UHGV virus genome: UHGV-1624474
Source: a virus
Direction: 5' to 3' (one strand)
Length of the DNA: 10,505 nt
Shown here: positions 1 through 10,505 of the stretch, in pieces
Position numbering within the stretch: the first letter of the stretch is position 1
Layout of the letters: each line of letters opens with the position of its first letter
Position numbers and translations under genes: made by a program
The notes under the pieces: model-generated
What the model saw: only the letters and a program-made list of their open reading frames with translations
Told to the model about the DNA's origin: nothing
The model's database searches: none

Positions 1-3
1 ATA

Positions 4-201
4 ATGTCGCTACCGCAGGAAACGAAAGAGGAAAAGGAATTTCGCCATTGTATATGGCTTGCAGAGAAAGAAGAACGCGAGCGAATTTACCAGACATCAA
101 TCCGACCATTCCGCAAAGCCACATATACCCACTTCCCTGAATATATCGACCCGCGCCTGCGTAATTACCGCTCACGCTATGGCGCTATCAGTAATGACTG
201 A
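4..201 (+). CDS. hypothetical prophage protein; frame is open back to nt 1, so the true start may lie upstream of the window
   Basis: 65-aa ORF ending at TGA 199-201. It is followed 7 nt later by the next start with its own Shine-Dalgarno, which fits the operon frame pattern. No recognisable motif. Confidence 0.35.
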
Positions 202-211
202 GGAATTTACC

Positions 212-376
212 ATGAGAGGACTTGCATACAATCCCGGCATTCTTCCGGCAGAAATGATTATTCGCCAACGCGTAAAGCCAATGCCATCGAGAGAGGAATT
301 GCTTAAGAGAAATAGTTTCGGTTCTGTTAATGACAACAAATATCTGAATGCGATGTGGCGGAGTGGGAAAAAATGA
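212..376 (+). CDS. small hypothetical protein (54 aa)
   Basis: ATG at 212 preceded by GAGGA (200-204) at 7-nt spacing. Stop TGA 374-376 overlaps the next start (ATGA). The ORF track lists a longer alternative frame start at 59 with no ribosome-binding site. Confidence 0.45.
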
Positions 377-972
377 AACAAATGTCACTAATTGAGATGG
401 ATGGTTTTCTGAAAGGTAAATGCATCCCAAGTGATTTAAAGGTTAACGAAACAAACGCTGAGTATCTGGTGCGTAAATTTGCTGAAGCGGAGGCCAAGAT
501 TTCGGCTCTGTCCGAAGACCACCAGAAAGCGATTGAGTCAATTAAGCAGGCTGATGCGGCTGTTAAGTTGGCACACGAGAAGTTTTCGGCGCTGGCGGCG
601 GAGAATGCGGGGCTGAAGGGTGCGTTTGATAAGCCTCAAGCATATCTATCCTGGCACGCTATTCCACCAAGCTGGGAAGACCCGCTCCCATGCGGTGAAT
701 ATCTTGATGTTCATGACGAGGCAGGACACAAAAACTCCGATGGAACTGATTGCTGGCCGGTATATGCCAAGCCAGAAATCGAGACCACAGCCACCTACGC
801 ATTCCTGGCTGAAGTACGGGCGCAGGGGGTAGAGATGTACGCAGATAACCTCGACAACGGAGCAGACGACGCAGAACGAGGTGGTTTTGATTATGCCGTT
901 AAGTTTCTACGCAGTGAAGCGTCTGGTGTACGTTTGTTCGCCGACCAGCTTCGCAAAGGAGGCAACCAGTGA
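373..972 (+). CDS. hypothetical prophage protein with predicted coiled-coil N-terminal half
   Basis: ORF track 355..972 (GTG 355). I prefer ATG 373, which overlaps the upstream stop as ATGA. Stop TGA 970-972 overlaps the next start (GTGA). Ala/Glu/Lys-rich heptad-like segment [48 protein letters not shown]. Confidence 0.65.
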
Positions 973-1829
973 GCAAGATTGATTATCAGGCACTGCGTGC
1001 TAAGGCAGAAAAAGCAACGTGTGGCGAGTGGTCTCTCGAGTATGGAGAGGGCCGATTTGATGGTGATGATGCACTAATTCATCGCGAGGCTGCTGGATAT
1101 ATTCCCATTTGCAGAATTGAAGGAGCGCATCCTGAAAGCGGTTTCGATGAAGATTTCCAAATAGAACAGCAGGCCAATGCTGAATTCATCGCCGCAGCCA
1201 ATCCGGCTACCGTCTTGGCGCTGCTGGATGAACTGGAAAGAAACCAGCAATACATCAAACGCCGCGACCAGGAGAACGAGGATATTGCGCTTACGGTTGG
1301 GAGGCTGCGCGTTGAGCTGGAAGGCAAAGACAGCAAAATAGCCAATCTTACCGCCGAACGCGATGCTCTTCGTGAAGGTGAGATGGGCGACGCTAGGCAT
1401 AGCAACACACGGGCCGCAGCTGATATCTACTTCCAACTGGTCGAGGAGTGCGAAATTCCTGCTGGCGGTTCTCTGGTCGAGTACGTTGACGATATGCGCG
1501 AGAAGCTGGAAGCCGCAGAGAAACGTCTGGCAGAACTACAATCTAAATCCATGCGACCTGTGGCGTGGATGAGAAGCGACGATATTACTACATTTGGACC
1601 AATATTCACCAAGAACGAAAACTATGCTGTTGAGCAGTGGGGAGATAATGCGGTAGCGCTTTATGCATCCCCAGTTAATTTCAAGTTGGCATGCTTCACT
1701 GACGAGAGAAATCTTAAGTACATCAATGAACGAGGAAGGGAGACATCTCTCATCTGGAGCGAAAGAAATTCAGAAAATGGTGATGTTCAACTTTTCCGCG
1801 CCGCAGGCATTCGCATCAAAGGAGAGTGA
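969..1829 (+). CDS. Ea22-like family prophage protein
   Basis: GTG start 969 with AAGGAGG at 954-960. N-terminus [21 protein letters not shown] and the motif FIAAANPATVLALLDELE match my recollection of ead/Ea22-like prophage proteins. Central coiled-coil; 286 aa. Confidence 0.7.
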   Translation: MSKIDYQALRAKAEKATCGEWSLEYGEGRFDGDDALIHREAAGYIPICRIEGAHPESGFDEDFQIEQQANAEFIAAANPATVLALLDELERNQQYIKRRDQENEDIALTVGRLRVELEGKDSKIANLTAERDALREGEMGDARHSNTRAAADIYFQLVEECEIPAGGSLVEYVDDMREKLEAAEKRLAELQSKSMRPVAWMRSDDITTFGPIFTKNENYAVEQWGDNAVALYASPVNFKLACFTDERNLKYINERGRETSLIWSERNSENGDVQLFRAAGIRIKGE

Positions 1830-1830
1830 T

Positions 1831-2118
1831 ATGGCAACTTTGCAGGAATTAATCGACCTGACGCCGGAACAGGAAAAAGCGTGGAATCGCCTTGTGAAGG
1901 CTGTAAAGGATTTCAGGGCATCCGGAGGAAAGTTTTATAGCGTCCTGGACACGCTGAGCGCATACAACGGTGAGCACGTTGCCAGCATTGATAACGATAA
2001 GGGCTACCACACTGCAAGCGTCTATATGCCTAGCATTGATGCGCCAGGGCTAACCAGTTGGGCTGATGATTGGCACGGCATCACGCTGAAAGATGGCGTT
2101 GAAGTGGATGAGGACTAA
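1831..2118 (+). CDS. hypothetical prophage protein (95 aa)
   Basis: ATG 1831 lies 1 nt after the upstream stop, with AAAGGAGAG at 1818-1826. The ORF track's 1663 start is an in-frame upstream extension overlapping the previous gene and is rejected. Confidence 0.65.
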   Translation: MATLQELIDLTPEQEKAWNRLVKAVKDFRASGGKFYSVLDTLSAYNGEHVASIDNDKGYHTASVYMPSIDAPGLTSWADDWHGITLKDGVEVDED

Positions 2119-2121
2119 CCC

Positions 2122-2814
2122 ATGACCACTATTACCAAAGAGCGACTACTGACAATCAAGCAGTGGCGCGAAACATACGGACCTGGTAGCAACGTTGTAC
2201 TGCCAGCAGAAGAAGCGGAAGAACTGGCACGAATTGCACTGGCATCGCTGGAAGCAGAACCGGTGGCGTGGATGCGTGATGACGCAGATGGTCGTGAGTA
2301 TAACGCTCGCAATGAATTTTCTGATGGAGGGAAAGGAATTCCGCTATATCGTGTGCCGCCAGCGCCGGAAGTGCCGGAAGAAATATATTGGCAGGATGCG
2401 CCAGTTGAAGGCAGCATCAAAGCGGCTGCATACGCTACAGACTGGAACGCCTGCCGCGCCGCCATGCTTCATGGTGCCAAACCTGTAAGCCAGACTTACA
2501 AGTTAAACGAGCTGTCGGGCAACTCTCCGGTAACTCCGGATGGTTGGATAAGCTGTAGTGAGCAGATGCCTGTAATCGGCGAGCTAAATTGGAGAACTAG
2601 TTTTCCTTTACTGGTTACGTGTGAGATCGGCGTTATACCTGCTTATTACGGCTTTGTGAGCGTTAATGGTGATAGGCATTATGGCTTTATGGAGAGTCTT
2701 AAATACGGAGACGATAACGGCAACCATCCTCAAACTAATGAATATGGTCTGATTAGCAATGTCACACACTGGATGCCTCTACCAGAACCGCCTCAGGAGG
2801 TTAACCGTGGCTAA
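2122..2814 (+). CDS. DUF551-like prophage protein
   Basis: ATG 2122 with GAGGA at 2110-2114. C-terminal segment WISCSEQMP...VTHWMPLPEPP resembles the DUF551 hallmark. N-terminal EAEPVAWMRDD module is shared with the Ea22-like protein. Confidence 0.7.
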   Translation: MTTITKERLLTIKQWRETYGPGSNVVLPAEEAEELARIALASLEAEPVAWMRDDADGREYNARNEFSDGGKGIPLYRVPPAPEVPEEIYWQDAPVEGSIKAAAYATDWNACRAAMLHGAKPVSQTYKLNELSGNSPVTPDGWISCSEQMPVIGELNWRTSFPLLVTCEIGVIPAYYGFVSVNGDRHYGFMESLKYGDDNGNHPQTNEYGLISNVTHWMPLPEPPQEVNRG

Positions 2815-3088
2815 TCTGCAACTTGCCGTTAAAGGTGAATACTTCGATGCCATGATTCGCGGGGAGAAAACGGAAGAGTATCGCTTGTGTAATGACTACT
2901 GGAATAAGCGAATTATGTTCCGGGAGTATGACCGCCTGATTATCACGAAGGGATATCCGAAGCGCGACGACTTCAGTCGCAGAATTGATGTCCCGTATGA
3001 CGGATATGAAATCAAGACAATCACACATCCCCACTTCGGCGATAAACCGGTAAAGGTATACGCGATAAAGGTGAATATCAATTGCTAA
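2807..3088 (+). CDS. ASCH/DUF3850-like (PUA-fold) small protein, tentative
   Basis: GTG 2807 with AGGAGG at 2795-2800, overlapping the upstream gene by 8 nt. Pattern GEYFDAMIRGEKTEEYR...YDRLIITKGY resembles ASCH-type domains. Track start 2759 lacks a ribosome-binding site. Confidence 0.5.
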   Translation: MANLQLAVKGEYFDAMIRGEKTEEYRLCNDYWNKRIMFREYDRLIITKGYPKRDDFSRRIDVPYDGYEIKTITHPHFGDKPVKVYAIKVNINC

Positions 3089-3112
3089 ATTAGTAGCATA
3101 GCATAAAGATGC

Positions 3113-3136
3113 TTGCATTAATGAAGTGTGTATAAT
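3113..3136 (+). promoter_or_regulatory. candidate sigma70-type promoter for the AT-rich small-ORF insert
   Basis: Perfect -10 TATAAT at 3131-3136 with TG-rich sequence immediately upstream. The nearest -35-like hexamer, TTGCAT 3113-3118, is at a suboptimal 12-nt spacing. Confidence 0.2.
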
Positions 3137-3199
3137 AACGCCTCATCAATAGTAAACTACTGAAATAGCAAAAAATGCATATTAAAGAGGATTCGAAAA

Positions 3200-3391
3200 T
3201 TGAAAATGTTCATGCAAATAGACAGACGCATAGATATTAATGGCAATTCATACTTAGTTAGATGCGAAGAGAGGCCTAACGGTGAGTGGCGTGTATATGA
3301 TATTGACCGTAAGATCAATATCAGCACCATGAACAAAGACACTGCCTTTGATGAATGGAAAGCTGAAGCTAAAAAACAACATAATTCGTAG
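3200..3391 (+). CDS. small hypothetical protein (63 aa) in AT-rich insert
   Basis: TTG 3200 lies 9 nt after AAAGAGG (3184-3190); ATG 3206 is an alternative. Stop TAG 3389-3391, followed by a hairpin terminator. No recognisable domain. Confidence 0.35.
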   Translation: MKMFMQIDRRIDINGNSYLVRCEERPNGEWRVYDIDRKINISTMNKDTAFDEWKAEAKKQHNS

Positions 3392-3433
3392 AATTACAAA
3401 AACCCTAACCAATTGATGGATTTCTTTTATCTG

Positions 3434-3460
3434 AACTCGCTACGGCGAGTTTTGTTTTAT
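3434..3460 (+). terminator. candidate intrinsic terminator
   Basis: 7-bp stem AACTCGC/GCGAGTT (3434-3440 / 3445-3451) with loop TACG, followed by TTGTTTTAT. Confidence 0.4.
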
Positions 3461-3471
3461 GGAGATGATAA

Positions 3472-3639
3472 ATGCACTTCCGAGTCACAGGTGAATGGAA
3501 TGGAGAGCCATTCAACAGGGTTATCGAAGCAGAGGACATCAACGACTGCTATAACCACTGGATGATATGGGCGCAGATAGCACATGCAGACGTAACCAAT
3601 ATTCGAATTGAAGAACTGAAAGAACACCAAACCGCCTGA
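3472..3639 (+). CDS. small hypothetical protein (55 aa)
   Basis: ATG 3472 with GGAG at 3461-3464 (7-nt spacing). Translation MHFRVTGEWNGEPFNRVIEAEDINDCYNHWMIWAQIAHADVTNIRIEELKEHQTA. Stop TGA 3637-3639 sits in the loop of the following terminator. Absent from the ORF track because it is under 60 aa. Confidence 0.4.
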   Translation: MHFRVTGEWNGEPFNRVIEAEDINDCYNHWMIWAQIAHADVTNIRIEELKEHQTA

Positions 3640-3654
3640 TGGCGGTTTTTTATT
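3630..3654 (+). terminator. rho-independent terminator
   Basis: Stem AACCGCC (3630-3636) / GGCGGTT (3641-3647) with loop TGAT, immediately followed by TTTTTTATT. Confidence 0.65.
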
Positions 3655-3696
3655 GCCTGATTTGCAGGTTCGATTCCCTATTCGGAGATAGCACTC

Positions 3697-3897
3697 ATGC
3701 AACACGAACTACAGCCTGATTCACTGGTTGATTTGAAATTCATCATGGCCGATACTGGCTTTGGTAAAACCTTCATCTACGACCGTATTAAGTCCGGCGA
3801 CTTGCCAAAAGCCAAAGTTATCCACGGGCGAGCAAGATGGTTATATCGTGACCATTGTGAATTCAAAAATAAGCTCTTAAGCCGCGCCAATGGGTAA
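3697..3897 (+). CDS. AlpA-family phage transcriptional regulator / excisionase (Xis-like)
   Basis: 66 aa. ATG 3697 with GGAGA at 3684-3688. Helix-turn-helix core LVDLKFIMADTGFGKTFIYDRIKSGDLPKAKVIHGRARWLYRD is typical of the AlpA/Xis (Phage_AlpA) family. Sits directly upstream of the integrase on the same strand. Confidence 0.85.
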   Translation: MQHELQPDSLVDLKFIMADTGFGKTFIYDRIKSGDLPKAKVIHGRARWLYRDHCEFKNKLLSRANG

Positions 3898-4109
3898 AAT
3901 AGCGGGTAAAATATTTCTCACATCTAAAAAACACCATTCCAATCAATCCCCTGCCGCCTCAAGTAGATGTCTGCAGGGGACACCATTTACACCTCTCCTG
4001 AAATCTACCATATCCCATAAAAAGCCTTTATAATCAGTATATACCCTTACTTATGTTACTCAAATAGTCGCCGTGATTCTCCTCAGGGGTACGTAAATCA
4101 AGTCACATT

Positions 4110-4159
4110 TGGGGGCCTATTTAGGGGCACATATTGGTCAATCTATTGCGAGGCCCCCA
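4110..4159 (+). promoter_or_regulatory. inverted repeat overlapping the integrase ribosome-binding site
   Basis: TGGGGGCCT (4110-4118) and its reverse complement AGGCCCCCA (4151-4159), separated by 32 nt. The right arm covers the int Shine-Dalgarno GAGG (4150-4153), 2 nt before ATG 4161. A perfect TATAAT is at 4029-4034 upstream. Confidence 0.3.
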
Positions 4160-4160
4160 G

Positions 4161-5351
4161 ATGCCACTGACAGCTCGACAAGTTGAAACAGCCAAACCCA
4201 AAGATAAAATTTATAAAATTGCCGATGGTGGTGGGCTCTACCTGCAGGTCAATCCTAACGGCTCAAAGTACTGGCGAATGAAGTACCACTATGCAGGGAA
4301 GGAAAAGAAACTATCATTTGGCACCTATCCAACTATTACATTGGCTGAAGCTCGCAAACGTCGGGATGAAGCCAAGAAAATACATGCCGATGGTAAAGAC
4401 CCCGGTGAAGTCAAGAAAGCTGAAAATCTTGAGAAAAACCTTTCTGAAGGAAGAACTTTTGCCACAATCGCCACCGAGTGGTACAACGCAAAAGTTTCAG
4501 GCTGGTCGGCCAGCTACGCTGATTATGTCGACAGAGCATTCAAAAATAATGTGTTTCCCTACATTGGAAACAGACCCATCAGTGATATCGAACCTCTTGA
4601 ACTTCTCGCAGTTCTTCAGCGTATTGAAAGCCGCGGAGCCTGCGAGCTAGCTAATAAAGTTCGCCAACGATGTGGTGAAGTGTTTCGGTATGCCATTGTT
4701 ACAGGTAGGGCTCGATACAATCCAGCCTCTGATCTGGTTATAGCAATGAAAAGCCATAAACGAACACATTACCCATTCCTGCTTCCTCCTGAACTACCAG
4801 AGTTTTTGTACAAACTCGAAAACTACACCGGCAGTATTGTAACCCGTGAAGCTACAAAATTGTTGATGCTCACAGGGCTGAGGACCGTAGAATTACGTAT
4901 GGGGGAATGGTGTGAGATCGATTTTTCCCAAAAAATATGGGAAGTGCCTCCGACCCGGATGAAAATGAGGAAGGAACATATTGTTCCCCTCTCAAATCAG
5001 GCAATTCGGTCTCTCCAAATCCTTAAAGAACTGACGGGAAGATACAGATACATCTTTGCCGGAAGAAATGATGTTAACAGGCCTATCAGCGATGCAAGCG
5101 TCAATATGGTTTTGAAGAAGATTGGCTATGACAAAAAAGCTACCGGGCATGGTTTTCGTCATACAATGAGTACTATTCTACATGAGAAAGGATTCAATAG
5201 TGCATGGATTGAAATGCAACTTGCACATACGGACAAAAACAGCATTCGTGGTACATACAACCATGCTCGTTACCTTGAAGGAAGACGAGAAATGATGCAA
5301 TGGTACGCTGACTACCTTGATGCTATTCGAAAAGATTCCCCAGCTATATAA
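4161..5351 (+). CDS. int: tyrosine site-specific integrase, P4-type (N-terminal DUF4102 arm-binding domain)
   Basis: N-terminus MPLTARQVETAKPKDKIYKIADGGGLYLQVNPNGSKYWRMKYHYAGKEKKLSFGTYP is the DUF4102 signature. C-terminal catalytic boxes TGLRTVELR, HGFRHT, LAH and RGTYNHARY (nucleophilic Tyr) are present. Track start 4134 (TTG) is an upstream extension; ATG 4161 gives the canonical N-terminus. Confidence 0.92.
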   Translation: MPLTARQVETAKPKDKIYKIADGGGLYLQVNPNGSKYWRMKYHYAGKEKKLSFGTYPTITLAEARKRRDEAKKIHADGKDPGEVKKAENLEKNLSEGRTFATIATEWYNAKVSGWSASYADYVDRAFKNNVFPYIGNRPISDIEPLELLAVLQRIESRGACELANKVRQRCGEVFRYAIVTGRARYNPASDLVIAMKSHKRTHYPFLLPPELPEFLYKLENYTGSIVTREATKLLMLTGLRTVELRMGEWCEIDFSQKIWEVPPTRMKMRKEHIVPLSNQAIRSLQILKELTGRYRYIFAGRNDVNRPISDASVNMVLKKIGYDKKATGHGFRHTMSTILHEKGFNSAWIEMQLAHTDKNSIRGTYNHARYLEGRREMMQWYADYLDAIRKDSPAI

Positions 5352-5368
5352 TCACTTGATTTTAAAGG

Positions 5369-5424
5369 CTGACTTAACGAAATACCTTGATAGTCATTTA
5401 TCAGTAATCTAATAGTTAAGTCAG
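5369..5424. repeat. 10-bp inverted repeat downstream of int; candidate attachment-site or recombinase-binding region
   Basis: CTGACTTAAC (5369-5378) and GTTAAGTCAG (5415-5424) are exact reverse complements separated by 36 nt. They lie in the 90-bp AT-rich gap between the int stop and the IS remnant. Confidence 0.3.
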
Positions 5425-5441
5425 TCATAATCCCCTAAGTA

Positions 5442-5913
5442 TCACTCCTCAATCAGTTTCAGCACATTGTTGACCTGTCTCCAGTATTCGATACAACCAT
5501 CAGTCAGCCTGCTGGCACGACGTTGCGACAGACCCGTTGCCTCACACATGACTTCCACGGCTTCCCACTTCTGTTCTGTCGTCAGAATTTCGGTCCAGAG
5601 CTACCTGAAGTACCTCCTTATCCAGCATGGTTTTGGCGAGCAGCGTCTTGAGGGGTCGTTCTCCTCTTCAGGTGTCTTAAGCCGCTTTACCTCAGGGACT
5701 TCTATTCCACCAAACTTCGGCGCCCGGTGTAGAAAGTAGCGTCTGAAATAGCATTCTTGCGGCAGAGTTCCCGGGCAGAAACGCCGGCTACGGCCTCGCG
5801 GAGGATACTGATAATCTGTTCGTCGGAAAACACTTCTTCATGGGGATACCCTAACGTTGCTGATGAAGACATTACTTACATCGTGGTATATTAATAAATG
5901 TGGGAGCAGGTCA
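5442..5913 (-). pseudogene. IS3-family (IS407-group-like) insertion sequence remnant: frameshifted orfA plus first codons of orfB, truncated
   Basis: Minus-strand ATG at 5872 gives MSSSATLGYPHEEVFSDEQIISILREAVAGVSARELCRKNAISDATFY, then a stop. Two shifted frames continue with KFGGIEVPEVKRLKTPEEEND, LLAKTMLDKEVLQVAL and EVMCEATGLSQRRASRL, matching the conserved IS3 OrfA pattern. Candidate terminal repeat TGACCTGCTCCCA on the minus strand at 5913-5901. No DDE domain follows. Confidence 0.7.
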
Positions 5914-5990
5914 ACTCCACAATGCAGTCCACTGAGGGAAGAGATCATTAGGTGCAAAGGATCTACATTAGTGGCTGAAAACAACTAGAA

Positions 5991-6019
5991 TTTAGAATTA
6001 AAAAGTTTTATCCTATATT
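5991..6019 (+). promoter_or_regulatory. candidate promoter of the SIR2-DUF262 operon
   Basis: -10-like TATATT (6014-6019) with -35-like TTTAGA (5991-5996) at 17-nt spacing in an AT-rich leader. Purely a hexamer match. Confidence 0.2.
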
Positions 6020-6058
6020 AGTAAGTATTTTTGTTAACACTTTTGTAAGGATACTTTT

Positions 6059-7108
6059 TTGAGCAGCGAAAAAAAAAAGAAAGTTGGGTTAATGCTTGGG
6101 AATGGATTCACTATTGACCTCCTTAGCAAAATGGACAAACTTGATATAATTGACCCATCCGATCTATTTAAATATGGCGATATGGTTAAGTGGCCCGCCA
6201 CTGGGGAACCCGGTTTTCTTTCTGCTCGATATTGCCCAAATCTATGGCGATTGGGTGCAAGACCCGGGCTAAATAGAACCGCATCATATCAAATAATAGA
6301 AGAATTAATTACAGTAATAAATTTATATGCAACTCTACCTCCAGAAACAATAAAGAAGAAAAATCAGGCAAGTCATACTCCATTGTCAAACATTTACATT
6401 TATGCTTATCAAGAATTAGTTTCATATTTAAGGGAGCTTTTCATTGATTATAACGAAAAAGTTTCCTCTGAAGATCTACGTAAGTTAGAAAGTGGCTGGC
6501 GAGACTATTTGATGAAACTGGACAAAAACGAAAACATAGAACGAGTTGATATTATAACTTATAACTATGACATTTATCTTGAGCGCCTTCTTGATTTACT
6601 TAATATCAGATTTGACATCCCAAACATATCTGACGGGAATGCAAAGTTTAAAATATACAAACCACATGGCTCTATTAGCTTCTTGTATGAAGGATATATG
6701 TCAAAAGATAACTACAATATCCAAAAAGAGTTATCTTTAAATAATGGCGACATATCAAAATTCGAATGCCGGCATGAAAACTTAAGCCTTTACATGCCAT
6801 TAATTCCAATAATACCGCCAGCAGGAGAAGCTCATCGTTATGCCCAAAACTGGGCTAATTCAATTAAAGAGTCTATTGAAGCGACGATGGAGTCGTACAA
6901 CCCAAACGATGATTTCTTCATTTGTGGTATTTCATATTGGCATGTTGATCGTGCCGAAATTGATGCAATAATACGCAAAATAAACAGTGACGTTAATGTT
7001 AGAATGATTAATCCAGGAAATGTTGATGGTTTAAGTGCTATACTTGGAATGGTATTTAATAGTTATGTTCATCATTCATCATCTGAAGTTTTAAAGGAGC
7101 TTGCCTAA
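6059..7108 (+). CDS. SIR2-like (SIR2_2 / DHS-like NAD-binding fold) protein; putative NAD+-consuming defense effector
   Basis: 349 aa. TTG 6059 with AAGGA (6047-6051) at 7-nt spacing; ATG 6092 is an alternative start. Glycine loop LMLGNGFTID (aa 11-20), motif IITYNYDIYLE (aa 165-175; codons 6551-6583) and KPHGSI (aa 201-206; His codon 6665-6667) match the bacterial SIR2 hallmarks GAGxS / TTNYD / K-x-HGS. Hand-counted sample lines are about 25-40% G+C. Confidence 0.78.
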   Translation: MSSEKKKKVGLMLGNGFTIDLLSKMDKLDIIDPSDLFKYGDMVKWPATGEPGFLSARYCPNLWRLGARPGLNRTASYQIIEELITVINLYATLPPETIKKKNQASHTPLSNIYIYAYQELVSYLRELFIDYNEKVSSEDLRKLESGWRDYLMKLDKNENIERVDIITYNYDIYLERLLDLLNIRFDIPNISDGNAKFKIYKPHGSISFLYEGYMSKDNYNIQKELSLNNGDISKFECRHENLSLYMPLIPIIPPAGEAHRYAQNWANSIKESIEATMESYNPNDDFFICGISYWHVDRAEIDAIIRKINSDVNVRMINPGNVDGLSAILGMVFNSYVHHSSSEVLKELA

Positions 7109-8136
7109 TGGAAATTTTAAAGCGGGATTCAAACAGTATTAATATTGCTTCCTTTTGGGAGGGCTTTTCATTAGGCAAATTTAATTTTGATCCTCCTTAT
7201 CAAAGAGATAGTGTTTGGGATGAAGAAAAACAATCATTCTTTATAGATAGTATACTACGTAACTATCCAATTCCCCCTATATTTCTCCATCAAAAAATTG
7301 ATGATGACACCGGAAGAATCACGTTTGAAGTTGTTGACGGAAAACAGAGGCTCACTGCCATTGTTAATTTTATCAATGGCCAAATAACATCAGCAAGTGA
7401 GGAAGAAGATGATGAATTGACTGGTGTGTTTTTTTCCGATTTATCAACTTCTAAATATGCAGAAGTTAAAAAATTATTCTGGCGATATCAGATGCCTATA
7501 GAGTACATTGATACTGAAGACGAAAGAATAATTGATAGTATTTTCGACAGGCTTAACAGAAATGGTGAACGACTTAACGGACAAGAGTTAAGGAATGCCA
7601 AATATCATGATACTGATTTTTATAAAAAAATAGTAGAATATTCACAACGTGAATATTGGCAAAAATTGCTAGAGCACGTTGATAAGAAGAGAATGGAAGA
7701 CAAAGAGTTTGTATCTGAATTGATATTCACGATCCTTGAGGATGAAGTATTTGGTGCAACTCAAGACATAATTGATAGTCTTTACGAGAAGTATTGCACC
7801 AAGAATGGTGATGAAACAAATGAGGCATTTTCTATTTTTGAAAAAACAACTGACTATTTAGTTGATATGAATATTGATTTCAAAAGTCATAAAGCAAGCG
7901 GTGTTAGTCACTTATACGGAATCTTCAGTTATGCACTTTATTGCAGTAACAATAATGTTCCTGTAGAAGAAGCGTCAAATAGACTTTCCACCTTCCTGGA
8001 TAGCTTGTGGGAAAAAGATACACAACATAATGCGGAATTAAGAAGAGAATATAGAAAAACTATGAGTTCTAGCACAAAAAGCAAAACCCAACGCTCACGT
8101 AGAATTGAAGTGCTTTTAAATCTACTTCACGATTAA
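7108..8136 (+). CDS. DUF262 (ParB/Srx-like NTPase) domain protein; no recognisable DUF1524/HNH nuclease module
   Basis: 342 aa. ATG 7108 overlaps the upstream TAA by 1 nt (TAATG), with AAAGGAG at 7093-7099. DUF262 motifs FDPPYQRDSVWDEEK (YQR codons 7198-7206), IDSILRNYPIPPIFL and VVDGKQRLTAI (about 7327-7359). The C-terminal half is helical with no obvious H-N-H catalytic pattern. Confidence 0.85.
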   Translation: MEILKRDSNSINIASFWEGFSLGKFNFDPPYQRDSVWDEEKQSFFIDSILRNYPIPPIFLHQKIDDDTGRITFEVVDGKQRLTAIVNFINGQITSASEEEDDELTGVFFSDLSTSKYAEVKKLFWRYQMPIEYIDTEDERIIDSIFDRLNRNGERLNGQELRNAKYHDTDFYKKIVEYSQREYWQKLLEHVDKKRMEDKEFVSELIFTILEDEVFGATQDIIDSLYEKYCTKNGDETNEAFSIFEKTTDYLVDMNIDFKSHKASGVSHLYGIFSYALYCSNNNVPVEEASNRLSTFLDSLWEKDTQHNAELRREYRKTMSSSTKSKTQRSRRIEVLLNLLHD

Positions 8137-8149
8137 ACTATATAATAGT

Positions 8150-8178
8150 AGGAGTGAACTTCGCTCCTGCTTTTCTCA
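8150..8178 (+). terminator. weak candidate terminator after the DUF262 gene
   Basis: 5-bp stem AGGAG (8150-8154) / CTCCT (8164-8168) with a 9-nt loop, followed by GCTTTTCTC. Confidence 0.25.
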
Positions 8179-8788
8179 CTCTATCTTTTATTATTTCTCT
8201 TTGAGATATGAAGTAATACTTTAAAAATATAAATCACATTCATCGCATATGATATTGTGATATCCCCACATGGTGCATGTTCGTAGTCTATCCCTCAGGC
8301 AAATAATAATAGAAAGTTAACCGAATCAGTTATACTCTCACCCAGATATTAGGATGGCTAAATCAACATGAGTGCAAGGATCGTCTTGGGGGAAACATTG
8401 GCACTGTGTGATGGCTCATCATTAAAAAATCAGTTTATATCAAAAGTAAATGATTACAGAAAAACTATATTTATAGATAAAGAAAAAAGCATTTAATTAC
8501 TTCTTAAATATGATAATCACACTCTGTGAAATGATACTTTGACTTACTTCCAATTATTAAACCACGAGATTCATGCATTACCATAATCATTTAAGAAAAC
8601 AAAAGTCCGGCCTTTGCTCTTATCAACCACTACAATTCATAAAGAAATCCTGTTGATGCAAAAAAAAGACATTGATCACAATATCGAGTTAATCATTTGA
8701 AAGTTTATTACTCACATTGAAAAATTTCTCAGTATCAGATATACCAACGTTGAGGGCTTCCCTCTTACATCTCAAAAGGATAACTATC

Positions 8789-8917
8789 ATGGGTCTTAAA
8801 CCAGGTCCAAAACCAATTGCTAAATCGACAGGAAAACCGGATCAACGCCGACGAGATAATAAAGATACTCCTGGCAACACTCCGGGACTAAAGCCAAGTA
8901 AGTCCACCGGGAAGTAA
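8789..8917 (+). CDS. small Lys/Pro/Gly-rich protein (42 aa) with internal repeats
   Basis: ATG 8789 with AAGGA (8776-8780) at 8-nt spacing. Translation MGLKPGPKPIAKSTGKPDQRRRDNKDTPGNTPGLKPSKSTGK has GLKP and KSTGK each twice. -35-like TTGAAA at 8717-8722. Track start 8717 is an upstream TTG extension. Confidence 0.4.
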   Translation: MGLKPGPKPIAKSTGKPDQRRRDNKDTPGNTPGLKPSKSTGK

Positions 8918-8922
8918 AAAAT

Positions 8923-8951
8923 CAGGGTATAAATAAGTTATTTATACCCTG
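8923..8951. terminator. perfect palindromic hairpin between convergent genes; terminator for the minus-strand gene, possibly bidirectional
   Basis: CAGGGTATAAATAA (8923-8936), G, TTATTTATACCCTG (8938-8951): 14-bp perfect arms. On the minus strand the hairpin is followed by ATTTTTTA (complement of 8915-8922). Confidence 0.6.
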
Positions 8952-8965
8952 ACTACATATCCAGT

Positions 8966-9861
8966 TTACTGAAGGTGTTTCTGCAGCCAGATGCACGTTC
9001 CTTCTGTATCATACGCCTGTGCCCCATACCCTGTAGCAAGCAAAGTCTCTGGTAAATACTCGTCATATTTATCCAGGTACTTGTCAGGAACAACTGCAGC
9101 AAGCTCAAACTCTGAAGGTAACCCCGACAATAACATTTTCTTAAGTGCACGCTGAACAGAGGCAACGCCTGAGCCCTCTACCTCTATCACACCTGCAAAT
9201 GAACTGGCTTTAAAGCCACAACGTATAAGCAGGGACGTAATTGTATTGACAATTTTATCCCCCATCCACGGGATCACGTAGCAGTTCTGACCACTGGCAA
9301 TAAAACAGTGATTTTGTAGATTGTAGCGTTGGAAGTTGTCACTTCCTTCCGCGAAGAGGCTTCTGGCTGCGGCATCAGCATAATCAACTCTCTTGTTGCC
9401 TACCGCGATACGGTAATCATTTTCCCTGTAGATAGCGAGCATCTCCTGGCGAACAACATCATGAACAGACATCCCGCTACCACTGAATAGTGGTGGCTGC
9501 CCGCCTTTAGTCGCCTCAACATAGATAGCTTTTTTTCAACCTCGATCTCTGTCACTTTCCAGCGCTGTCCGCCGAAGATGATGTGCTGCTCCGGCAAAAG
9601 TGGGGAGTCTACAGGCACTGTGCCAAGAGTTCGGTTTCCCGTTACAATGCGAAACTCCTCAGATGTATTGAATACGGCATAAAACGTGTAGTGATTAATC
9701 AGCTTCTCCCCCTCAGCCCCGACAACTATTTAACCGCTGGCTAGTTGAGTGAGCAGGCCACATGTCCCCATATGTTTAAGCAGACTTTTGAAGTCATTTA
9801 TATCCACATTCCGGAACGGACCTGTCTGGCAAAGTTGTGACCAGAGCTGATCGGCACGAAC
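8966..9861 (-). pseudogene. decayed C-terminal fragment of a larger gene of unknown function (5' end removed by the IS insertion, in-frame stop, homopolymer frameshift)
   Basis: Minus-strand frame is open from the IS end (9861) to an in-frame TAA at 9732-9730, then continues to a frame break at the A7 run (plus-strand T7, 9530-9536). One extra A would join it to the 168-aa ORF 8966-9472. About 50% G+C. Reconstructed sequence about 295 aa; no family recognised. Confidence 0.6.
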
Positions 9862-10505
9862 TGAACCGCCCCGGGTTTCCTGGAGAGTGTTTTATCTGTG
9901 AACTCAGGCTGCCAGATCATCGTTTCCGATGGAAGCATAATAAGCTTTTTCTGCTTCTGCCGGAGGAGTATGGCCCAGCCTTCCCAGCAATCGTCGATTG
10001 TTATACCAGTCCACCCACGTTAGTGTGGCCAGTTCCACTTCTGCACGGTTTTTCCAGCTCTTACGGTGTATTACCTCCGCTTTGTAAAGACCATTGATGC
10101 TCTCAGCCATCGCGTTGTCATACGAGTCGCCTGTACTCCCTGTTGATGCCAGTAATCCGGCTTCTTTTAGTCGCTCCGTATAGGCCAGTGACACATACTG
10201 AGAGCCTTTATCGCTGTGATGGATGGTGCCAGACGGACGACGGGCCCACAACGCCTGCTCCAGCGCATCCAGCACGAATGTCGTTTCCATAGACGATGAG
10301 ACCCGCCACCCCACGATGTATCCGGCAAACACATCAATGATAAACGCCACATAGACGAAGCCCTGCCATGTGCTGACGTAAGTAAAATCAGCCACCCACA
10401 GCTGGTCAGGTCGTTCTGCCACGAACTGACGGTTTACGCGGTCGCCTGCGGCAACGGCTTTCCGGCTGATGGTCGTACGGACCTTTTTACCCCGGAGAAC
10501 ACCGG
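9862..10505 (-). mobile_element. IS3-family insertion sequence (IS629/IS3411-like), right end; continues beyond the window
   Basis: Terminal sequence TGAACCGCCCCGGG at 9862-9875 matches the inverted-repeat start I recall for IS629/IS1203/IS3411. The OrfB stop is 42 bp inside it. Confidence 0.75.
9904..10505 (-). CDS. IS3-family transposase OrfB (DDE integrase core), N-terminus outside the window
   Basis: Translation has NRQF-x-A-x-x-PDQLWVADFTYV, HSDKGSQYVS and DSYDNAMAESINGLYKAEVIH, the canonical IS3 DDE-region motifs. The frame is open from 10422 to the window edge at 10505 (GVLRGKKVRTTISRKAVAAGDRVNRQF...). Confidence 0.85.
   Translation of the reverse strand, partial: GVLRGKKVRTTISRKAVAAGDRVNRQFVAERPDQLWVADFTYVSTWQGFVYVAFIIDVFAGYIVGWRVSSSMETTFVLDALEQALWARRPSGTIHHSDKGSQYVSLAYTERLKEAGLLASTGSTGDSYDNAMAESINGLYKAEVIHRKSWKNRAEVELATLTWVDWYNNRRLLGRLGHTPPAEAEKAYYASIGNDDLAA

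Follow-up and report, generated by a model that had tools for sequence, protein, structure and literature searches.

What occupies the AT-rich segment that lies between an integrase and an insertion sequence (IS) in the UHGV virus genome UHGV-1624474, and what could be its function? The segment spans positions 5914-8960 of the stretch of DNA analysed here, a window of 10,505 nucleotides (nt), and contains two open reading frames (ORFs) encoding a SIR2-like protein (ORF1) and a DUF262 protein (ORF2). An earlier description made from the letters alone, referred to below as the sequence-only reading, had noted the low G+C of the segment and had interpreted it as horizontally acquired cargo at an integration hotspot, the typical setting of defence islands. 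This observation and its central interpretation are correct, except for the ownership of the integrase and the right-hand boundary, and the setting is supported by the presence of the SIR2-like/DUF262 pair beside a remnant of the Shango defence system; the identity of the two genes and of the Shango remnant went unrecognised in that reading. We lean, at slightly better than even confidence, towards the view that the operon at 5972-8251 is an anti-phage defence system, composed of a sensor and an effector and carried in the mosaic cargo of the argW genomic island. The wider proposal, that the pair represents a widespread unnamed two-gene system joining type IV-like sensing of DNA or DNA modification (DUF262) to an output of nicotinamide adenine dinucleotide (NAD+) depletion by SIR2, and not to DNA cleavage, is offered tentatively, at somewhat less than even confidence. 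The features that bear directly on this reading are the following.

5972..8251, plus strand: autonomous SIR2-DUF262 cassette, consisting of a promoter region, two genes and a terminator (G+C 0.337)
6059..7108, plus strand: ORF1, 349 residues, immune-type SIR2-like protein and predicted NAD+-consuming effector, with a TTG start codon and AAGGA upstream
7108..8136, plus strand: ORF2, 342 residues, DUF262 domain (GmrSD_N, ParB-like NTPase) and helical C-terminal domain, NsnA-like, predicted DNA sensor
8147..8171, plus strand: intrinsic-terminator-like hairpin, an 11-bp stem followed by CUUUUCUC, at the end of the two-gene operon

ORF1 is an immune-type SIR2-like enzyme with an intact NAD+ site, and represents a divergent subfamily. 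Its homologs (691 relatives at E <=1e-3) retain about 40% identity across phyla, and in an alignment of 34 family members the residues G14-N15-G16, Y170-D171, and K201-P202-H203-G204-S205 are invariant, with N169 nearly so (>=90%). These positions supply the NAD+-site motifs of the immune ("SIRim") branch of the SIR2 superfamily, namely the Gly-rich loop, the N-x-D motif, and the catalytic His-Gly, and the Rossmann-type SIR2 fold is likewise found in ORF1, the AlphaFold model of which is confident (pLDDT 88.9, pTM 0.90). The TYNYDiwlE and KPHGS segments of the family profile align onto TTNYDLLME and KLHGS of PsSIR2, with a sequence similarity that is marginal (E 0.018), and 31 of the 34 members match the Pfam family SIR2_2 (E <0.01, best 1.5e-6). 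RefSeq labels for ORF1 vary between "hypothetical protein" and "SIR2 family protein", and its length between 349 residues (from the TTG) and 338 residues; this inconsistency is seen at 6059 in the window and at 14292 in a second locus (L002), and family alignments back a start at or near 6059.

The assignment of ORF2 is supported by a Pfam match to GmrSD_N (DUF262; 3.7e-27) and by PADLOC matches to NsnA of the Menshen system over the full length (1.9e-39, profile positions 51-379 of 385), to PD-T4-2_A (1.4e-27), and to REase_II (9.6e-12). The QR, DGKQR, and FxxxN motifs are invariant, DGKQR being a variant of DGQQR, and the C-terminus is all-helical; relatives of ORF2 number 1,509 (E <=1e-3). 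The roles of these motifs, and of DUF262 domains as sensors, have been described (PMC12137116, PMC10952713, PMC12065111): in GmrSD, BrxU, and SspE, DUF262 senses (modified) phage DNA in an NTP-dependent manner and activates a nuclease, and in Menshen it is the proposed sensor (PMC12065111). A Pfam search for the DUF1524 His-Me nuclease domain found no match in either ORF1 or ORF2. Solved structures of close relatives were not found for either protein, ORF1 giving only a marginal match to 8w9l and ORF2 nothing; the best solved structural matches of ORF2 are BrxU and SspE.

The two genes are strictly paired. The stop codon of ORF1 and the start codon of ORF2 overlap in the window (TAATG), and the two genes are predicted to form a translationally coupled operon with its own terminator. 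In a survey of 22 loci drawn from one-genome-per-species contigs, an ORF2 homolog lies 10-20 nt 3' of the ORF1 homolog, at 38-54% identity, in 21 of the 21 informative loci, the remaining contig, from Planctomycetota, being uninformative as it ends right after the ORF1 homolog. The paired loci span Bacillota, Verrucomicrobiota, Nitrospirota, Magnetococcales, and Beta- and Gammaproteobacteria, and the pairing is also found in Aeromonas and Pectobacterium. Both genes are under strong purifying selection, with ratios of nonsynonymous to synonymous substitution (dN/dS) between E. coli and Klebsiella oxytoca of 0.019 for ORF1 and 0.047 for ORF2, and both families retain dozens of invariant columns at about 40% identity across phyla.

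The limits of the cassette are set by K. oxytoca NBRC 105695, in which the matching locus (L003) corresponds exactly to 5972-8251 of the window at 87% identity, with nothing matching outside; this interval is therefore regarded as the unit that moves between genomes. The hairpin at 8147-8171 lies within the Klebsiella-shared stretch and folds at -15.9 kcal/mol (z = -5.6, with none of 200 shuffles as stable), and was unlisted by a simple consensus scan. At the other end, promoter-like hexamers occur at 5962-5991 and 5991-6019, and since the scan returned 12 matches with 12.7 expected in shuffled sequence, the assignment of the cassette promoter is weak. In K. oxytoca, which has the closest copy outside E. 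coli, the cassette is inserted in the opposite orientation between the TraU/DUF1525 and TraC genes of an integrative and conjugative element (ICE; 1214-13040 of L003), which also carries TraG_N, and such an element is a plausible vehicle for the spread of the cassette; the insertion site is a cargo hotspot of the ICE. The Aeromonas copy of the pair stands alone, inserted between parC and a gene for an MFS transporter, and that of Pectobacterium sits amid HigBA-like toxin-antitoxin and helix-turn-helix (HTH) genes. In each of the seven hosts that were compared, the G+C of the cassette is below that of the flanking DNA (0.35 versus 0.61 in Aeromonas and 0.48 versus 0.71 in Pelomonas, for example).

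A scan of 143 flanking ORFs at the 21 loci revealed C5-cytosine methyltransferase genes adjoining the pair, on either side, in five loci from five lineages (L004, L011, L013, L014, and L018). These methyltransferases are mutually divergent (25-29% identical), and genes for NgoMIV-type endonucleases (n = 2) and Vsr (n = 2) were also found near the pair. Because C5-cytosine methyltransferases number only a few per genome, this adjacency looks like a real enrichment. The proximity could reflect mere clustering in defence islands, or it could reflect a functional link between 5-methylcytosine modification and the DUF262 sensor.

In the mechanism that these features suggest, ORF2 would recognise incoming phage DNA, possibly modified DNA as with GmrSD, BrxU, and SspE, its NsnA-type helical domain acting as the DNA-binding part, and would then, through the binding or hydrolysis of NTP, switch ORF1 on, presumably by physical interaction between the two proteins. 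Once activated, ORF1 would hydrolyse NAD+, and the resulting depletion would abort the infection, as in the SIR2-HerA, DSR, ThsA, and SIR2-pAgo systems. In these four systems the depletion of NAD+ by immune SIR2 domains has been described (bioRxiv 10.1101/2021.12.14.472415; PMC11472057).

Several observations weigh against this reading of the pair. At the level of the single sequence, the Pfam matches of ORF1 fall below the curated cut-offs, both for SIR2_2 (PF13289; 2.8e-3, 18.2 versus 24.5 bits) and for AbiH (PF14253; 9.7e-5, 23 versus 30.9 bits, residues 99-311), and the PADLOC SIR2 models match ORF1 at about 1e-3 only. Most of the other flanking genes in the neighbourhood scan are housekeeping genes, so that the association with defence is partial. 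The pair has no match in sequenced phages, and one match, on a megaplasmid, among plasmids. A literature search that included RefSeq accessions and the DefensePredictor supplements found the pair undescribed, its coverage being partial and an earlier description possible. Finally, the roles of sensor and effector could be otherwise assigned, because SIR2 folds also occur in deacylases and ADP-ribosyltransferases, and ParB-like domains also in nucleases.

Four rival explanations were weighed. The pair may serve in defence without depleting NAD+: ORF1 would be an NAD+-dependent enzyme, either an ADP-ribosyltransferase or a deacylase, with a protein or nucleic acid of the phage or the host as its substrate, and ORF2 would target ORF1 to DNA; we consider this unlikely. 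A type IV-like restriction system, in which the ParB-like domain of ORF2 would cut (modified) phage DNA and ORF1 would be a regulator or an NAD+-sensing accessory, would fit the placement of DUF262 in the ParB-like nuclease superfamily (PMC3632139), the identity of the closest solved relatives of ORF2 as the type IV enzymes BrxU and SspE, the REase_II match of ORF2, and the five loci in which the pair lies beside restriction-modification systems. However, in GmrSD, BrxU, and SspE it is the DUF1524 His-Me domain that cuts DNA (PMC10952713, PMC12137116), and ORF2 has no such domain, and the strictly conserved catalytic motifs of ORF1 argue for an active enzyme, not a mere regulator, so that such a system appears improbable here.

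The compactness of the cassette, the overlap of its two genes, and its positions, alone between core genes in Aeromonas, among toxin-antitoxin genes in Pectobacterium, and within the Klebsiella ICE, would also be expected of a selfish addiction module, in which a SIR2 toxin is held in check by a DUF262 neutraliser and which persists on mobile elements while having no dedicated role against phages. Yet ORF2, with 342 residues and conserved NTPase motifs, is unlike typical small labile antitoxins, and both domain families have been repeatedly validated in defence systems (PMC10952713); the two roles are not mutually exclusive, many abortive infection (Abi) systems acting like toxin-antitoxin systems, and addiction as the whole explanation is given a low probability. 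The segment could even be inert AT-rich junk, or silenced and decaying DNA caught between IS elements, considering that decayed IS copies and the Shango pseudogene flank it, that ORF2 is disrupted by IS1 in one E. coli strain, and that a 405-nt spacer within it has no recognisable content. The intact state of both ORFs in 26 of 27 E. coli genomes at identities of at least 99.6%, the dN/dS values of 0.02-0.05, and the columns that stay invariant between phyla make the absence of any function very improbable, and since the selection data contradict it for both genes, it could apply to 8252-8965 only.

Defence by a DUF262 sensor and a SIR2 effector can also be set against known systems, each of which has one component in common with the pair. 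ORF2 matches NsnA of Menshen (NsnABC) over its full length and has the same build, a ParB-DUF262 domain followed by a helical "ParBDB" domain, which in Menshen is the proposed sensor of phage DNA (PMC12065111); the pair, however, has neither the NsnB ABC-ATPase/DUF3696 transducer nor the NsnC inPIN-nuclease effector, and the gene order is reversed, with the SIR2-like partner upstream of the DUF262 gene. Genes of the NsnB or NsnC type were absent downstream of ORF2 in the window, where a terminator and non-coding DNA follow, and none is conserved in the 21 loci. PD-T4-2 of E. coli ECOR65 (Vassallo et al. 2022, PMC9519451) is likewise a two-gene E. coli system with a DUF262 protein that lacks DUF1524, but its partner has a HEPN domain (PMC10952713), whereas the partner here has a SIR2 fold, and Pfam and PADLOC searches gave no PD-T4-2_B or HEPN match for ORF1. 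GmrSD, BrxU, and SspE share with ORF2 a DUF262 domain with the QR, DGxQR, and FxxxN motifs; unlike them, the pair has no DUF1524 His-Me nuclease domain, and its presumed effector is a separate SIR2 protein. SIR2-HerA (Nezha) has the SIR2 component in common, its partner being the HerA hexameric ATPase/helicase in contrast to the ParB-like DUF262 protein found here. Identification of the pair as Menshen, PD-T4-2, or GmrSD was rejected, as the pair lacks a defining partner or domain of each. Because one component is common to each system and the defining partner is absent, the pair is probably a sensor-plus-SIR2-effector variant with a DUF262 sensor.

AbiH, an abortive infection protein of Lactococcus that is now viewed as SIR2-like (PMC13064643; bioRxiv 10.1101/2024.09.18.613514), resembles ORF1 in its length of about 350 residues, its SIR2-like fold, and its N-terminal GNGF-type loop. 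According to the account of Prevots et al. 1996 given in PMC13064643, however, AbiH was cloned as a single gene, whereas the ORF1 family was paired with DUF262 in every informative locus. ORF1 as AbiH proper was rejected on score, the match being below the cut-off and only 2 of the 34 family members matching the AbiH family, and on architecture, a DUF262 gene always following.

As its surroundings show, the cassette forms part of a mosaic AT-rich segment that the argW genomic island holds as horizontally acquired cargo. The low G+C of 5914-8960 is real: it amounts to 0.341, compared with 0.473 in the remainder of the window, and is the minimum among all 3,047-nt stretches of the window. The composition, examined by sliding windows and by codon composition, is strongly non-uniform, with a G+C of 0.28-0.38 in 300-nt windows over approximately 5850-8850 and of 0.42-0.57 in the prophage genes, the integrase, the sngC remnant, and the IS, and with a G+C at third codon positions of 0.30 in ORF1 and 0.27 in ORF2 versus 0.40-0.54 in adjoining genes. 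The features outside the cassette are the following.

1..3970, plus strand: right end of a lambdoid prophage, with ea22-like and DUF551-type genes and a small HTH ORF at 3697-3897; outside the island
3971..3985, plus strand: att core duplicating the tRNA-Arg (argW) 3' end, ctgcaggggacacca, at the junction of prophage and island
4134..5351, plus strand: tyrosine integrase of the argW island, P4/IntS type (RefSeq start, the ATG at 4161)
5471..5913, minus strand: decayed IS3-family element, with a frameshift element at 5498-5614 and an orfA HTH fragment at 5702-5872
8252..8656, no strand assigned: orphan AT-rich spacer of 405 nt (G+C 0.328)
8657..8965, no strand assigned: Shango 3' flank, with a small Lys/Pro-rich ORF at 8789-8917 (plus strand) and a 16-bp bidirectional terminator hairpin at 8920-8954
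8966..9866, minus strand: sngC pseudogene, a frameshifted 3' remnant of this Shango helicase gene, severed by IS1203, with sngA and sngB missing
9867..10505, minus strand: IS1203 (IS3 family, IS629-like), running past the end of the window

From 3971 onwards, the window is 99.3-100% identical to a chromosomal island shared by a limited number of E. coli strains, whereas positions 1-3970 give partial matches to prophages of O26/O111-type strains that are annotated with ead/Ea22-like, DUF551, and DUF4752 genes. Prophage-free strains such as ATCC 8739 become identical to the window within the 3' end of tRNA-Arg: the same 15 nt that occupy 3971-3985 terminate the annotated tRNA-Arg of ATCC 8739, and the sequences are identical from there on. 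ARAGORN found no complete tRNA in the window, only this 15-nt fragment. Because identity with prophage-free strains starts at 3971, the prophage must have been inserted between argW and a pre-existing island, and the abutment of the prophage end on the 15-nt argW repeat indicates tandem occupancy of argW by a prophage and an older island. The same arrangement of phage and integrase is observed in O26/O111-type strains at about 95.6% identity.

The integrase matches the Pfam families Arm-DNA-bind_3 (4e-28), Phage_int_M (3.7e-33), and Phage_integrase (1.7e-26), and matches NCBIfam PRK09692 at 1.3e-85, under the curated cut-off. It had been attributed to the prophage, an attribution that does not hold. 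The gene directly follows tRNA-Arg in ATCC 8739, RM11911, CRE1540, and O111 88-19539, and since prophage-free strains have tRNA-Arg directly before an identical integrase region, the integrase is the island's own. The remainder of the left-hand boundary is as the sequence-only reading described it, a decayed IS3-family remnant next to the integrase. The frameshift element of this remnant (minus strand) matches the Rfam family IS1222_FSE (98.5 bits, E 9.6e-20), and its orfA fragment, also on the minus strand, matches Pfam HTH_Tnp_1 (6.7e-7); RefSeq labels the remnant, which has a G+C of 0.512, as a frameshifted, partial transposase. Similarity to other island variants stops at 5470, downstream of the integrase and immediately before this remnant.

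To the right of the cassette, the tract at 8137-8788 had been described as a long AT-rich non-coding stretch. It indeed has no annotated genes, but it is a composite of the operon terminator, the orphan spacer, and the beginning of the Shango 3' flank (from 8657). The spacer at 8252-8656 is confined to the E. coli genomes that have the gene pair, being absent from the Klebsiella locus and from 514 genomes that share 8657-8965, and contains no ORF longer than 42 residues and no Rfam match; it folds no better than its shuffles on either strand (z +1.97 and +0.66). A structured or non-coding RNA within 8137-8788 was rejected, the permissive Rfam search having matched only the IS1222 frameshift element, which lies outside the tract.

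The stretch at 8657-8965, found at about 90-95% identity in those 514 genomes, lies directly 3' of an intact sngA-sngB-sngC operon behind the same integrase in strain THO-010, and its hairpin at 8920-8954 folds at -19.4 and -17.5 kcal/mol (z about -6.7). The Lys/Pro-rich ORF within it encodes MGLKPGPKPIAKSTGKPDQRRRDNKDTPGNTPGLKPSKSTGK and is 90-95% identical at the nucleotide level across the 514 E. coli genomes. In CFT073, where it follows IbrB-like/PerC genes, the MGLKPGPKPIAKSTGKPDQRRRDNKDTPGNTPGLKPSKSTGK ORF is annotated as the C-terminus of a 107-residue hypothetical protein, the upstream part of which is out of frame here, so that conservation is apparent for the 42-residue part only.

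The right-hand bound had been given as an IS629-like element. An IS1203 is present there, but it starts at about 9867, and a 900-nt stretch, the sngC pseudogene (8966-9866), separates it from the AT-rich DNA. The remnant matches PADLOC SngC at 4.9e-30 over profile positions 564-719 of 720, and a tblastn search with the intact SngC of THO-010 recovers residues 544-732 at 96% identity and residues of approximately 410-555 in another frame; RefSeq describes it as "DEAD/DEAH box helicase, frameshifted, missing N-terminus". Whereas related islands carry an intact TerB/ATPase/helicase operon in the same place, what was found here of Shango (SngABC) is only this frameshifted 3' part, which corresponds to the C-terminal part of SngC. 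With sngC truncated by IS1203 and frameshifted and with sngA and sngB absent, Shango is non-functional at this locus. The IS1203 assignment rests on matches to NCBIfam transpos_IS3 (7.2e-62) and Pfam rve (2e-28) and on the RefSeq label "IS3-like element IS1203 family transposase"; matches to strains without this IS1203 copy stop at 9861.

The segment is also variably present among related genomes, as expected of accessory DNA. Among 5,426 complete E. coli genomes, 27 have the gene pair (6059-8136), in every case within the argW island of the chromosome, with other cargo at the locus elsewhere. Both checks named in the sequence-only reading, on composition and on variable presence, thus gave the outcome it predicted. 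The order in ATCC 8739 is yfdC, tRNA-Arg (argW), integrase, IS3 remnant, "hypothetical protein", "DUF262 protein", a pseudogenised DEAD/DEAH helicase, IS1203, MarR, and the iol genes. The genome in which the two ORFs are not both intact is that of strain PI12 (NZ_CP074005.1), where the DUF262 gene is split by IS1 and the SIR2-like gene is annotated as intact; this pattern would be unexpected if ORF1 were a constitutively toxic enzyme restrained by ORF2.

A full-length copy of the integrase module is present in 265 genomes, the majority of which have a variant with 95.8% identity. Three other islands were inspected (THO-010, CRE1540, and O111 88-19539) and were found to carry PapB and a protein with an HsdR N-terminal domain, with an intact Shango in two of the three. 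In these commoner argW variants, the slot of the SIR2-DUF262 pair is filled by the gene for the HsdR N-terminal domain protein (of up to 786 residues) and by hypothetical genes, the HsdR-type genes lying at 4407-6104, 18515-19714, and 16097-18457 of the respective loci (L033, L034, and L035). Located next to Shango, the HsdR N-terminal domain protein may be another candidate defence gene. Because the same integrase carries other cargo elsewhere, the pair is one cargo among several that can occupy this defence-type hotspot, and the locus combines the tRNA-adjacent integrase, variable cargo, deviant composition, and defence genes of a tRNA-hotspot genomic (defence) island.

The argW island of E. 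coli is thus shown to swap defence cargo, and a locus annotated as "hypothetical protein" plus DUF262 becomes a candidate defence system. DUF262 proteins that lack a nuclease domain, as in Menshen, PD-T4-2, and Dazbog, are validated components of defence systems whose mechanisms are largely unknown (PMC12065111, PMC10952713). The SIR2-DUF262 module is conserved and apparently undescribed; it is not categorically new, and it could clarify how nuclease-less DUF262 proteins signal. As the family is large, spans many phyla, and is present in ATCC 8739, testing is straightforward. If the proposed roles are correct, the pair would combine a sensor and an effector in a new way, with E. coli ATCC 8739 as a tractable native host. 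As a minimal two-gene system whose sole plausible effector is a SIR2 enzyme with a readily measured output, the loss of NAD+, it could then be used to ask what DUF262 senses and how its signal reaches a separate effector.

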